Below, piece after piece: positions 4,861 through 8,733 of a stretch of DNA of 30,280 bases. The stretch is taken from UHGV virus genome UHGV-0139558; one strand, given 5' to 3'. The stretch comes from a virus. The notes beneath the pieces were generated by a model that saw only the letters and a program-made list of their open reading frames with translations, ran no database searches and was not told the DNA's origin. Numbering within the stretch: the stretch's first letter is position 1; the number at the start of each line of letters is the position of its first letter. The position numbers and the translations under genes were made by a program.

Positions 4861-5331
4861 TTTGCTGCTCCTCATCATATCGACCCTGCAAGGTCGGTTG
4901 GTTTCTCCACAAAACAGAGAAGAACACCTGCGGTGGCAGCCGCCCGGATGGATTGGGTTATTAGCTCGTCGTCCGGTGATGCTCTTCTCTGTTTTGTAAA
5001 AAGAGCGGTACCAGCCGGAAGCAAGTGTACAAACTGGTACCGCCAAAGCAGTGGCTGTTGTGGTGACCGGTGCTGATCTCCGGCATGCGGTTATTTCAGA
5101 CTCTCACGGGCATTTAATTGCCCCGCCGAACAGCTCTTTTCTGCAATAGCTGCAATGTCTTTCGCGCATCAGCCTGCGCATTCACCACAACGCTAAGGAT
5201 TCTCTCTGGTTGAAAATACTTAGCTGTTATGTGCCTGCTTTTAGCCACATCAGGCGAGGTGGACCTGGTTATTCCCCAACAACAAGGATTCGGTTAATCT
5301 GGTTATCCCCAACAACGCAAAAGGAAAAGAA

Positions 5332-5766
5332 ATGTCCGGTAATATCTACACGTTGTACAAATCCCACTGTGAAAATGTTGGAAAGTATCGGGGCATTGAA
5401 ATCAGTGGGATAGTGTCATCAGTCGAAATAAGCAAAGTGGAATCAAGGGCAACATTACTTACTCTTCTGGATCTTGTCTTACATGAGCACCGGAAGAAAT
5501 TCGGCACTCCCTATAATCAGTTGAATGGGAAAAAGGCTCTGGTTCACCTTATTCTGATGAAGCATCACTGGATGCCAAAACAGATTAATGAGATGAAATT
5601 TGATGAACTTCTTCTTTCAATTCAGGATGAACTCACACTTGATAAAATAAGCGTAACCGCCCAGAAATTTTTAGATTATCGAGACTGGAGATCACAAATT
5701 CATCACTTTGATGATTTTGACGAAAATGAATGGGATCCTAATTTGTCTGCACAATATCTAAAGTAA
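5332..5766 (+). CDS. Hypothetical 144-aa protein, orphan gene oriented against the leftward early operon
   Basis: AGGA RBS 6 nt upstream of ATG; preceded by about 280 bp of noncoding DNA with direct repeats; 3' end overlaps the convergent 5738..5944 gene. Confidence 0.45.
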   Translation: MSGNIYTLYKSHCENVGKYRGIEISGIVSSVEISKVESRATLLTLLDLVLHEHRKKFGTPYNQLNGKKALVHLILMKHHWMPKQINEMKFDELLLSIQDELTLDKISVTAQKFLDYRDWRSQIHHFDDFDENEWDPNLSAQYLK

Positions 5767-5944
5767 CATCCTGTGATAAAACCGTGATTTCCTGATCCAG
5801 TTTTTTTAAGGAGTCTATTGTTTCCTGTCGATAAGACAGCACTTCACGAAGCTGGTTTATAGCTGCCAGCTTCTTTGTCATCCACTCATAAATTTCCTCA
5901 TCTGTGTAGCCAGGCGCGACGATTTTGGGTTCTGTTTTGTGCAT
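5738..5944 (-). CDS. Small hypothetical early protein (about 68 aa), first gene of leftward operon
   Basis: Start at 5944 preceded by GAGGAGGTG RBS; coiled-coil-like translation. Confidence 0.45.
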   Translation of the reverse strand: MHKTEPKIVAPGYTDEEIYEWMTKKLAAINQLREVLSYRQETIDSLKKLDQEITVLSQDVTLDIVQTN

Positions 5945-5992
5945 TTCACACCTCCTCAAGTTATCAGTTACTTGTTGATGGGGACCAGATTG

Positions 5993-6016
5993 TTAAAGAG
6001 CTAAGCGTCCTGTAGG
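5993..6016 (+). terminator. Candidate rho-independent terminator (plus strand)
   Basis: Stem AGCGTCC / GGGCGCT (one G-U wobble) followed by TTTTTTGTTG. Confidence 0.4.
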
Positions 6017-6099
6017 GCGCTTTTTTGTTGCTAACGAATCATCCTGGACTTCATATGCCCCAGGCGGCTACTTCGTGGGTGTCCTGCCTGTTCGTTGTC

Positions 6100-6160
6100 T
6101 TAACACCTTTAAGTTGTAATTTAGTTGTGGTTTTGAATGTTGTCAACAACTTTATGTGGT
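6100..6160. promoter_or_regulatory. Left operator region (OL-like) with repressor half-site repeats
   Basis: Motifs AACACCTTTAAGTTGT and CAACAACTTTATGTGG share the half-site ACAACTT/AAGTTGT with the cI-cro intergenic region. Confidence 0.5.
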
Positions 6161-6209
6161 TTGAACGAGTAGCCAAGGAGTGCAAGGATTATCAAAAAAA
6201 GGAGGTTGT

Positions 6210-6593
6210 ATGGAAGACGCGCTTTACGCTTTTAATTACACACAGAACCGGGACAAGTTATTTGCTAACTTGATTAGCATCATTGATGGAATCATTGCAG
6301 ATGGAGTTGTCCGTGAAGAGGAGGTTCTTTACTTAGATACATGGTTACTTGAAGCAAAGCAGATTATCAATAATGGAGTTATAAAAAGTCTATCTGCTCG
6401 GGTGTCGGATATTCTTGCGGATGGAATAATCACATCAGAAGAACGTGATGACCTTAAAAATAGCCTTCTCCAAATACAGAGGGAAATTCTTGATATCCCT
6501 GAAATTGATTTTTACTCCAAGGATGTAGATGTCCATTTACTTAATGGACTATGTAAAGGATTAATTGCTGATCGGAACTTAACTCAAGAATAA
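6210..6593 (+). CDS. TerB-like domain protein (about 127 aa)
   Basis: AAGGAGG RBS 6 nt before ATG at 6210. Two 'ADG-h-h-x-EE' motifs ('IADGVVREEEV', 'LADGIITSEER') as in TerB-family helical domains. AT-rich. Confidence 0.5.
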   Translation: MEDALYAFNYTQNRDKLFANLISIIDGIIADGVVREEEVLYLDTWLLEAKQIINNGVIKSLSARVSDILADGIITSEERDDLKNSLLQIQREILDIPEIDFYSKDVDVHLLNGLCKGLIADRNLTQE

Positions 6594-6632
6594 ATAAGAT
6601 ATCTTAATTGGTGGCTTGAGCAAAATGGAGCT

Positions 6633-7100
6633 TTGAAGAACAACTACCCAGGAAAAAAACTTTATGCACTTGTAAAGGAAATTCTTAAAGATGGTGTTAT
6701 TACTGAAGATGAGAGTTTAACTCTACATAAGGCATTAGTAGACTTCACAGGATGTGACTTGGAAAGTGGGGTGGTGGATGGTTTGGCGACCAGGCTGCCT
6801 ATTGATGTAGGGGCTTCGATAGAGTTAGAGGGTAAAACCTATTGTCTTACAGGCACTTTTGTTGCAGGAAAGAGAGCCGTAGTTGAAAATTTGATTAAAA
6901 ATGCTGGTGGGAACATCAGTAGTGGAATTACTCAAAAGTTGGATTTTTTAGTAATTGGGACGCTTTCCTCCCGTGATTGGAAATTCTCTAGTCACGGAAG
7001 GAAGATCGAAAAGGCTATATCTTATAGGGATGATAATGGTGCAAAACTTAAAATTATTTCTGAAGAAATGCTTTTCGATGCATTACCAAGTTCGCGATGA
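6633..7100 (+). CDS. BRCT-domain protein with N-terminal TerB-like half-motif; same frame as upstream ORF, separated by one TAA
   Basis: C-terminal 'GKTYCLTGTF...GKRAVVENLIKNAGGNISSGITQKLDFLVIG...ISEEMLF' matches the BRCT pattern of LigA C-termini. Listed ORF starts at TTG; frame is open back to the TAA at 6591. Confidence 0.5.
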   Translation: MKNNYPGKKLYALVKEILKDGVITEDESLTLHKALVDFTGCDLESGVVDGLATRLPIDVGASIELEGKTYCLTGTFVAGKRAVVENLIKNAGGNISSGITQKLDFLVIGTLSSRDWKFSSHGRKIEKAISYRDDNGAKLKIISEEMLFDALPSSR

Positions 7101-7769
7101 CCAGAATACCCTACCTATAACATGAATTCTGGCTCGTCTATCTTCAAAGGTGAGTATTTCATCTGGGTACTCATCTTTGTTGAAGCTTCTAAGAATCAAG
7201 CCACCGTCAGGTAAGTTGATAAGTATTTTAACCCTTAGCAATACACCATCTCGTACGGCATAAAGATCGCCATCACGAATAGGAACGGTTTGAGAAATAT
7301 CAACGGCAACAAGATCTCCATTATTGAGAACCGGTAATAAACTGTTCCCCCATATTTGTACGATCTTGGCATTAGATGCACATACGCCAGATTTTCTCAA
7401 ATCTGCTCTTCTTAACGGAAACCAGTCAATAGCTGATTCAACTATTTCAGCCAGACATCCGTTACCTGCCGATAACTCGACATCTAAAACAGGAATGTTT
7501 ACGAAAATATCGGGGTCTAATGCGGTGCTTTCTGCTTCTTTTACAACAAGATCAGGTATGGATGCGTTGTCTTCAATACCAAGTTGTAACCACTTTTGTG
7601 ATACACCTAAAACTTTTGCAATTTCTTTAATTTTGCGCGGTTGTAGAGTTTCGCCATTCTCTATTTTGGCTACAGATTGTTGTGAAAGTCCAATTTTTTC
7701 AGCTAGTTGAGCTTGGCTCATGCCAGCTTTCTCTCTACCTATCTTTAATCGTTCTGCCAGTGTTTTCAC
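7083..7769 (-). CDS. cI: CI-like prophage repressor (HTH_XRE + S24 LexA-like peptidase domain)
   Basis: N-terminal HTH 'MSQAQLAEKIGLSQQSVAKIENGE'; C-terminal S24-like fold; GTG start with AGAGGG RBS; divergent from Cro-like gene across operator repeats. Confidence 0.85.
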   Translation of the reverse strand: MKTLAERLKIGREKAGMSQAQLAEKIGLSQQSVAKIENGETLQPRKIKEIAKVLGVSQKWLQLGIEDNASIPDLVVKEAESTALDPDIFVNIPVLDVELSAGNGCLAEIVESAIDWFPLRRADLRKSGVCASNAKIVQIWGNSLLPVLNNGDLVAVDISQTVPIRDGDLYAVRDGVLLRVKILINLPDGGLILRSFNKDEYPDEILTFEDRRARIHVIGRVFWSSRTW

Positions 7770-7796
7770 AACATATCCCTCTCTTTTTTGATGAGG

Positions 7797-7885
7797 TTAC
7801 AACTTTATGTTTTAGCTTTCCAACACCTAAAAGTTGTGGTAAAAGTTGTTAATGTTGTATTCTTGCAGCTCGTAACAACTTAACT
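7797..7885. promoter_or_regulatory. Right operator/promoter region (OR-like; pRM/pR expected here)
   Basis: Repeated half-sites ACAACTTTATGT, AACACCTAAAAGTTGT, AAAAGTTGTTAATGTTGT, GTAACAACTT between divergent cI and cro. Confidence 0.55.
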
Positions 7886-7904
7886 ACCAAAAAAGGAGAA
7901 AGCT

Positions 7905-8153
7905 ATGACACCTGAGCAATTAGCCTTATCGGAGGCAATCGCTCTGGCTGGTGGTCAATCAGAATTGGCTCGGAAGCTCACAGCCAGCAGCGGTCATTTA
8001 GTAAAGCAACAACATGTCTGGAACTGGTTGAACAGAGAAAAGCGTCCCCCTGCAAAGCTCTCGATATTCATTGAAAAGACCACTGGCATATCAAAAGAAA
8101 AATTACGTCCAGATATTTTTCAAAAGATTAAAGATTCATCAGATGAAAAGTAA
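7905..8153 (+). CDS. cro: Cro-like / YdaS-family HTH regulator
   Basis: 82 aa, GGAG RBS; 'AGGQSELARKL...' HTH; position immediately right of OR, divergent from cI. Confidence 0.7.
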   Translation: MTPEQLALSEAIALAGGQSELARKLTASSGHLVKQQHVWNWLNREKRPPAKLSIFIEKTTGISKEKLRPDIFQKIKDSSDEK

Positions 8154-8175
8154 CCACAGTTTTAAGGAGATAGCC

Positions 8176-8733
8176 GTGGGTAAGCATCACTGGAAAATAG
8201 AAAAACAGCCTGAGTGGTACGTGAAAGCTGTCAGAAAAACTATCGCGGCGTTGCCGGGGGGTTACGCTGAAGCCGCTGACTGGCTGGATGTAACAGAGAA
8301 CGCTTTATTCAACCGCCTTCGTGCAGATGGCGATCAGATTTTCCCGCTGGGATGGGCAATGGTTTTACAGCGTGCTGGTGGCACTCACTTCATTGCTGAT
8401 GCTGTGGCGCAGTCTGCAAATGGCGTCTTTGTGTCTCTTCCTGACGTCGAGGATGTGGACAACGCCGATATTAACCAGCGTCTGCTGGAAGTCATTGAAC
8501 AGATCGGCAGTTATTCAAAACAGATTCGTTCAGCAATCGAAGACGGCGTAGTGGAACCGCATGAGAAGACAGCAATTAACGACGAGCTGTATCTCTCAAT
8601 TTCGAAGCTGCAGGAGCATGCAGCACTTGTCTACAAAATTTTTTGCATTTCAGAAAGTAATGACGCCCGCGAGTGTGCAGCTCCGGGCGTCGTGGCGTCG
8701 ATTGCTTCTGGTTGTGGAGAAACTAACGCATGA
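8176..8733 (+). CDS. CII-like / YdaT-like regulatory protein (putative)
   Basis: GTG start with AAGGAG RBS at 6-nt spacing; follows cro as in Rac-type immunity regions. Family call from position and recollection. Confidence 0.45.

Follow-up and report, generated by a model that had tools for sequence, protein, structure and literature searches.

The 30,280-nt viral DNA UHGV-0139558 ("the window" below means this whole stretch) holds, within an uncharacterised lambdoid prophage of Escherichia coli, an immunity module with the order OL, BRCT-domain gene, cI, OR and cro. The 15-bp palindrome ACAACTT-N-AAGTTGT (ACAACTTNAAGTTGT) occurs in this module as two pairs of sites, to the left of the BRCT-domain gene and between cI and cro, the two clusters being about 1.65 kb apart. 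Judged from sequence, these sites are probably the OL and OR operators of a 434-like CI repressor, an explanation in which OL is further proposed to act as a two-way switch. OL and OR for a CI-like repressor had been suggested in the initial annotation, and the assignment is favoured by the positions of the sites, their conservation footprint, the 434-like helix-turn-helix (HTH) domain of the repressor, a domain swap in a related prophage and a mosaic boundary beside OL.

The proposed operator palindromes and the predicted promoters around them

Exact copies of the half-site ACAACTT/AAGTTGT begin at 6111 (-), 6146 (+), 7799 (+), 7831 (-), 7843 (-) and 7875 (+), with further copies at 265 and 7581, and copies with one mismatch begin at 6103, 6122, 6137 and 7852. 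The earlier observation that the half-site is repeated at both ends of the immunity region holds well: the exact and near copies could be located, are clustered, and are conserved in relatives. Taken over the whole window, the 7-mer is not significantly overrepresented: it occurs 8 times where 4.5 are expected, and 8 or more were seen in 6 of 100 shuffles. Its clustering is another matter, with four exact copies inside 100 bp and never more than two in 500 first-order Markov simulations. The half-sites are parts of the 15-bp palindrome, which with up to two mismatches is found only at 6103, 6146, 7799 and 7823 in the 30 kb (four against 0.115 expected, with a maximum of two in 200 simulations). 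Since the palindrome was taken from these same four sites its count is not independent, and conservation in relatives is the independent test. Each of the four sites consists of one perfect and one imperfect half. Three other copies were rejected as sites: that at 265 was judged to be chance, as was the intragenic ACAACTT at 7581, which is part of an 11-nt perfect inverted match to 7795-7805 and is not kept at synonymous positions in relatives, and ATGTTGT at 6137 is conserved only in the closest lineage.

Promoters were ranked by a sigma-70 scan of 302,450 candidate positions in the window. The leftward promoter PL (minus strand; -35 TTGACA, 6146..6141; 17-nt spacer; -10 TAAATT, 6123..6118; predicted start about 6111) ranks first and was picked up by a consensus scan as well (10 of 12 matches), and both its hexamers are kept in relatives. 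It is bracketed by OL-a (6103..6117, ACACCTTTAAGTTGT), which has one mismatch and covers about -6 to +9 of PL, and OL-c (6146..6160, ACAACTTTATGTGGT), which has two mismatches, is centred at -42 of PL and at -43 of the predicted promoter of the BRCT-domain gene (P_brct), and has divergent -35 hexamers on either side. A second leftward promoter-like match (TTGGCT-16-TAAAGT, 6176..6149, rank 17) was discarded; its -35 falls in a variable stretch. At the other end of the module the maintenance promoter PRM (minus strand; -35 TTGGAA, 7823..7818; 18-nt spacer; -10 TAACCT, 7799..7794; predicted start about 7787) and the rightward promoter PR (plus strand; -35 TTGTGG, 7834-7839; 18-nt spacer; -10 TATTCT, 7858-7863; predicted start about 7870) each rank 146, and their predicted starts are about 83 bp apart. 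Both are overlapped by the operators OR-a (7799..7813, ACAACTTTATGTTTT), within the PRM spacer, and OR-b (7823..7837, ACACCTAAAAGTTGT), whose centre is at -43 with respect to PRM and -40 with respect to PR. The -35 of PRM is invariant in relatives, and its -10 varies as TA[AG]nnT, in which T1, A2 and T6 are kept. The PR -10 is TATTCT in the window and its closest relatives and TATAAT in nearly all other lineages, and PR may be weakened in the window's lineage.

In the switch that we propose, dimers of the 434-like CI would read ACAACTT-N-AAGTTGT, and Cro most likely would as well. CI on OR-b, aided by the conserved half-sites within PR, would block PR and at the same time stimulate the weak PRM from about -43, while OR-a, lying in the PRM spacer, would shut PRM off at high CI. 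OL-a, placed over the start of PL, would block that strong promoter.

Conservation was assessed in 84 fetched loci with cI homologues 57-100% identical to that of the window, from E. coli, Providencia, Proteus, Serratia and many viral contigs. Two sites stand 36-42 and 60-67 bp upstream of cI in every locus with enough flank, and in nearly all loci two further sites, 43 bp apart, stand about 933 and 976 bp downstream of cI; in one lineage the downstream sites are 191 and 234 bp from cI. The four sites are also in place in loci recovered by way of the BRCT-domain gene, down to 50% cI identity, and in Plesiomonas. When 15 representative lineages were aligned the operators and promoter hexamers proved invariant or nearly so, and the spacers and flanks were scrambled. 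In some lineages the imperfect half of OL-a is on the opposite side (ACACCTTTAAGTTGT versus ACAACTTTAAGGTGT), which is expected of a symmetric dimer site. OL-c is ACAACTTTATGTTGT in the Providencia relatives and the perfect palindrome ACCACTTTAAGTGGT in locus L160, which is described in the next section. If the motifs were chance, or neutral leftovers of duplicated AT-rich intergenic DNA without binding function, a 7-mer total that is not significant and evidently accidental copies such as those at 265 and 7581 would be no surprise. The clustering and the palindrome count are nevertheless far beyond simulation, and this explanation is contradicted by the sites staying invariant in lineages where change has saturated the spacers and flanks; we regard it as extremely improbable.

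L012 and some 28 further loci have a fifth near-operator, ACAGCATAAAGTTGT, in the intergenic region before yfdP, at 1775-2021 bp past the stop of cI. Its counterpart in the window (about 5045-5060) has diverged (…GCTGTTGTGGTG…) and the site is lost.

The left limit of the module can be placed with some precision. Homology to the heteroimmune phages Kati, SfIV, SfV and SfII stops at 6098-6101, directly left of OL-a, and because of this boundary, together with the protein and domain-swap results given below, 6103-6160 is taken to lie inside the immunity module. Beyond it the left arm, comprising yfdP/Q/R-like genes and an ECs1072-family gene, is common to CPS-53/SfV-type phages. The region 5960-7905 is covered to at least 80% in 48 of 5,426 complete E. 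coli genomes, and the immunity type was found in E. coli, Citrobacter, Serratia, Klebsiella, Salmonella, Providencia, Proteus and Plesiomonas. An assembly labelled 'Pseudomonas lundensis' (L002, JAWQUI010000002.1) also carries this enterobacterial-type immunity module, with a cI 71% identical and near that of the IMG/VR contig L085, which suggests contamination or misassignment, or else an unusually broad host range.

CI, Cro and the assignment of the binding protein

The cI gene (7083..7769, minus strand) has a GTG start and specifies a protein of 228 amino acids with the Pfam domains HTH_3 and Peptidase_S24. Its N-terminal domain aligns without gaps to the repressor of phage 434 (E 4e-13), the closest solved relative, and keeps the 434 residues Gln28, Gln29 and Arg43; the glutamine pair corresponds to Q30 and Q31 of CI and is invariant in the family. 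In the 434 co-crystal work of Aggarwal et al. (1988), Gln28 and Gln29 are reported to recognise the first bases of ACAA. The recognition helix QQS[VI][AQ]K of CI is invariant across the family, and the Ala-Gly and GNS...RVK motifs are conserved. The 434 operators are 14 bp long with conserved outer ACAA...TTGT (PMC1636474).

A natural hybrid repressor is encoded at L160 (IMGVR_UViG_2585427967_000001; cI start 4621, minus strand). Its N-terminal domain is about 85% identical to that of the window CI and its C-terminal domain is an unrelated, lambda-like S24 domain, while OL, OR, the BRCT-domain gene and cro are unchanged. Because the same operators are kept through this domain swap, the motif is tied to the DNA-binding domain of CI (and of Cro). 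The cro-like gene (7905..8153, plus strand) encodes a YdaS-family protein of 82 amino acids, in which the helix VKQQ[HQ][VI]WNWL is invariant in relatives and which shows weak similarity to the all-alpha Cro structure 3BD1. A gene for a CII-like (CP76/YmfL) protein is located at 8176-8733 on the plus strand.

Besides the palindromes the two regions contain lone half-sites. TAGTTGT (6122..6128), in the spacer/-10 region of PL, is kept in most relatives and absent in Plesiomonas. For AAGTTGT (7843-7849) and ATGTTGT (7852-7858), both in the PR spacer, a palindromic partner was not found. The GTTGT cores of the PR region, among them those at 7845 and 7854, form a direct repeat whose 12 and 9 bp spacing is conserved, Plesiomonas included. 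Finally, ACAACTT at 7875..7881, about +5 to +11 of PR, is invariant in all 15 representative lineages with variable flanks, and in the Providencia/Proteus relatives this last half-site is paired tail-to-tail with AAGTTGT. Such partnerless half-sites may be the equivalent of OR1, with binding through a single specific half, or may instead be sites for Cro.

They also bear on the idea that it is not CI but another protein that binds the motifs, or at any rate the lone half-sites and direct repeats, candidates being Cro (YdaS type) on its own and the CII-like activator (YmfL/CP76); the palindromes may or may not then be CI sites. Lambda CII recognises direct repeats, and the three GTTGT cores in direct repeat with conserved spacing, the invariance of the partnerless ACAACTT at 7875 and the inheritance of the cro and CII-like genes with the module would all be accommodated. 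This idea fits less well with the ACAA at the start of the half-site, which suits the Gln-Gln recognition helix shared with the 434 repressor, with the two-fold symmetry of the four full sites, whose imperfect halves swap sides, and with the way in which the motif follows the N-terminal domain of CI through the C-terminal swap, although Cro is kept there too. We consider it improbable, and prefer CI as the protein that would occupy the palindromes.

Several observations weigh against this preference or limit it. Each region has two full palindromes where lambda and 434 have three; no third full palindrome was found in PR by hand or by scans at 14, 15 and 16 bp spacing, and the -10/start region of PR holds lone half-sites only, a feature that the dimer model leaves unexplained. 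Four conserved half-sites (GTTGT 7845, GTTGT 7854, ACAACTT 7875 and TAGTTGT 6122) are without a partner. The contact analogy with 434 is partial, Gln33 of the 434 repressor being replaced by Lys in CI and the operator being 15 rather than 14 bp. CI and Cro are always co-inherited, and so comparison cannot assign the binder site by site. OL-c overlaps the -35 of PL by one base only, which makes its part in PL repression uncertain; since it is centred at -42 with this minimal overlap, repression of PL probably rests on OL-a. Megablast and tblastn searches of an isolated-phage collection returned no phage with this immunity and none with a cI more than 45% identical, and literature searches on the operator motif and on BRCT prophage defence gave nothing relevant.

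The predicted rightward promoter at OL and the BRCT-domain gene

Taking the palindromes as CI operators, we now consider the promoter that adjoins OL-c on its right. P_brct (plus strand; -35 TTGAAC, 6161-6166; 17-nt spacer ending in TG; -10 AAGGAT, 6184-6189; predicted start about 6196; rank 33) outranks every other plus-strand promoter match from OL to the start codon of the BRCT-domain gene. Across some 45 different upstream sequences, and in Plesiomonas too, the spacing of its hexamers is always 17 and the spacer sequence is free. The -35 varies as TTGA[AT][CT], and the -10 takes the forms AAGGAT, AAAGAT, AAATAT and AAGGCT, all with A2 and T6. P_brct has decayed only in the lineage from which most of the BRCT-domain gene is deleted, where the TG, the -10 (AAGGGT) and the -35 (TTTGAC) are all degraded; OL-c is untouched there.

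OL-c directly abuts the -35 of P_brct, and the distance from the operator centre to the -10 is 31 bp, the same as for OR-b and PRM. A repeat finder paired OL-c and its -35 with OR-b and the PRM -35 as an inverted copy, the two leaders pairing as well in the same register. An ungapped 67-nt alignment of OL-c/P_brct with OR-b/PRM contains 37 identities and is the best non-self match in the window, the next best having 34. Because the OL-c/P_brct spacing equals that of OR-b/PRM, CI is predicted to activate the BRCT-domain gene. The initial annotation had raised the possibility of a rightward, CI-controlled promoter at OL; a conserved sigma-70 match adjoining OL-c is indeed present, and its geometry would predict activation and not repression. 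That CI on OL-c stimulates P_brct, making the BRCT-domain gene a cargo expressed in the lysogen, is in our estimate close to an even chance, perhaps slightly less. Counting against it are the -10 of P_brct, which lacks the first T, the modest lead of 37 identities in 67 over the next best 34, and the fact that the argument for activation by CI is one of geometry.

A different reading leaves CI and Cro on the operators as described above and makes P_brct constitutive or, as the initial annotation had implied, subject to repression by CI at OL-c. The BRCT-domain gene would then be expressed regardless of the state of the prophage, or only after induction. P_brct is a better bare promoter than PRM (rank 33 versus 146) and may need no help, and OL-c is placed equally symmetrically with respect to PL (-42), so that position alone does not dictate activation. 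Steric repression is nevertheless unlikely with OL-c clear of the -35 hexamer and core promoter of P_brct, the motif scan gave no second site downstream of the P_brct -35, and the geometry is base for base that of OR-b/PRM. We rate a constitutive or repressed P_brct as unlikely, if a serious competitor.

OL-c sits between the back-to-back -35 elements of PL and P_brct, and in the lysogen CI bound there would probably activate, or at least permit, expression of the BRCT-domain gene. That would make OL a second two-way switch. We put forward only tentatively, as something short of an even chance, that OL is such an OR-like switch in which a dimer on OL-c activates a lysogen-expressed BRCT-domain gene, itself a weak relative of PDC-S48, and so links cargo or defence to repressor occupancy. 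If this is true, the module is a compact example of a prophage coupling an accessory or defence gene to the lysogenic state.

The BRCT-domain gene (6210..7100, plus strand) has 296 codons in relatives and carries an in-frame TAA at 6591-6593 in the window. What had been annotated as separate TerB and BRCT genes is thus one gene for a 296-residue protein, the halves of which are split by a stop codon. The sole difference from the intact gene of E. coli strain 2018-166 (NZ_CP075632) is G to T at 6591, changing GAA to TAA, and the gene is pseudogenised in the window by this nonsense mutation. It is intact (292-296 codons) in nearly all relatives. In L035 (5700-5830) and the lineage of 93% identity an internal deletion of about 742 bp has left a 34-codon remnant in which the first codons are fused to part of the BRCT domain; there OL remains intact and has been brought to 191-234 bp from cI. 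Homologues of the gene form 354 clusters across Enterobacterales. It is found beside the same cI type in every locus examined, Plesiomonas included. Of 130 viral-contig loci the best 80 were inspected, as was Plesiomonas, and none had a copy next to a different repressor type.

Only the C-terminal 90 residues of the protein match a known family, Pfam BRCT (PF00533), above the cut-off. Profile searches of the PDB matched this domain to the BRCT domains of Rad4, RFC1 and LigA, and Foldseek matched it to BRCT domains. The TerB label given to 6210-6593 finds no such backing: Pfam returned no match at E up to 1 with either the fragment or the full protein, and the fold search gave BRCT only. A TerB domain was likewise unsupported by NCBIfam, by the PDB profile search and by structure prediction with Foldseek; the structure model is of low confidence (pLDDT, predicted local distance difference test, 61.6), and against the PDB it yielded BRCT only. 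The sole resemblance to TerB is a repeated aDGxhxxxE motif. The protein has a weak partial match to the defence candidate PDC-S48. The BRCT-domain gene and cI are convergent and overlap by 18 bp (7083-7100), with no clear terminator between them, and transcription from P_brct would run antisense into cI. If CI does activate P_brct, this antisense transcription could feed back on repressor synthesis.

The PL leader and comparison with known immunity systems

To the left of the module boundary lies a 66-nt leader for PL (6033-6098, …GGCGGCTACTTCGTGGGTGTCCTGCCTGTTCG…) that is 97-98% identical to sequences of the heteroimmune phages SfV and SfII, which have it at the same place after their own PL, and that may have a cis-acting role in the early leftward transcript. 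An exact rrn-type boxA consensus (GCTCTTTAACAA, 5990-6001, minus strand) lies just downstream, in the direction of PL transcription, of a GC-rich hairpin at 6003-6022; the hairpin also resembles a plus-strand terminator for the ECs1072-family gene. Hairpin and boxA may together form a nut-like site for antitermination, in which the order, hairpin first and boxA second, would be unusual. A second copy of boxA was not found in the PR operon. No RNA family was found when both strands of 5600-8300 were searched against Rfam with E up to 1, and folding of the PL leader showed no unusual stability (z = 0.34), so that a structured antitermination RNA is not supported by either result, despite the exact boxA. 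The first open reading frame (ORF) of the PL transcript has 68 codons (5738-5944, minus strand) and a strong ribosome-binding site, GAGGAGG. It is unannotated in RefSeq relatives and matched no family, and the convergent ECs1072-family gene (5332-5766) overlaps it at that gene's 3' end.

The operator code, promoters and boundaries are now defined for an immunity type that is widespread in Enterobacterales prophages and has been without a studied representative, and they can be used in annotation, in the prediction of heteroimmunity and in the design of induction and reporter experiments. To the specialist the switch itself is ordinary, being of a well-known kind with a new, unstudied specificity. 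With SfV, SfII, SfIV and the CPS-53-type prophages the window shares its left arm and the 66-nt leader just downstream of PL, at 97-99% identity. SfV differs in its cI, lacks the BRCT-domain gene, and has a repeat of its own, GGGTACAT, at the equivalent position beside its own TTGACA.

The lambda switch, in which repressor at OR2 activates PRM and at OR3 represses it, offers a close parallel in layout, and our comparisons with it rest on established knowledge of that phage. In both, divergent promoters about 83-85 bp apart surround a shared operator whose centre is at about -42/-43 of a weak maintenance promoter, OR-a and OR-b being the positional counterparts of OR3 and OR2. Both have a second operator cluster at PL, here about 1.65 kb away, and a repressor with a self-cleaving S24 C-terminal domain. 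They differ in that lambda has no rightward promoter at OL and transcribes its lysogen cargo, rexAB, together with cI from PRM, whereas here the cargo gene converges on cI and apparently has a PRM-like promoter of its own at OL.

Phage 434 is a close parallel for the protein-DNA interface. The N-terminal domain of CI is homologous to that of the 434 repressor; its recognition helix likewise opens with Gln-Gln, and the minor-groove Arg is kept. The half-sites of both begin with ACAA and end with TTGT, and in both the OR and OL clusters overlap PR, PRM and PL. Here, however, the operator is of 15 bp (ACAA-N7-TTGT) and not of 14 bp (ACAA-N6-TTGT; PMC1636474), Gln33 is replaced by Lys and position 5 is a conserved C. 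Each region contains two full palindromes and lone half-sites in place of the three sites of 434, and Cro is of the YdaS type, not a paralogue of 434 Cro. Because operator length, residue 33, the number of sites and the type of Cro all differ, the specificity of this immunity system is taken to differ from that of 434.

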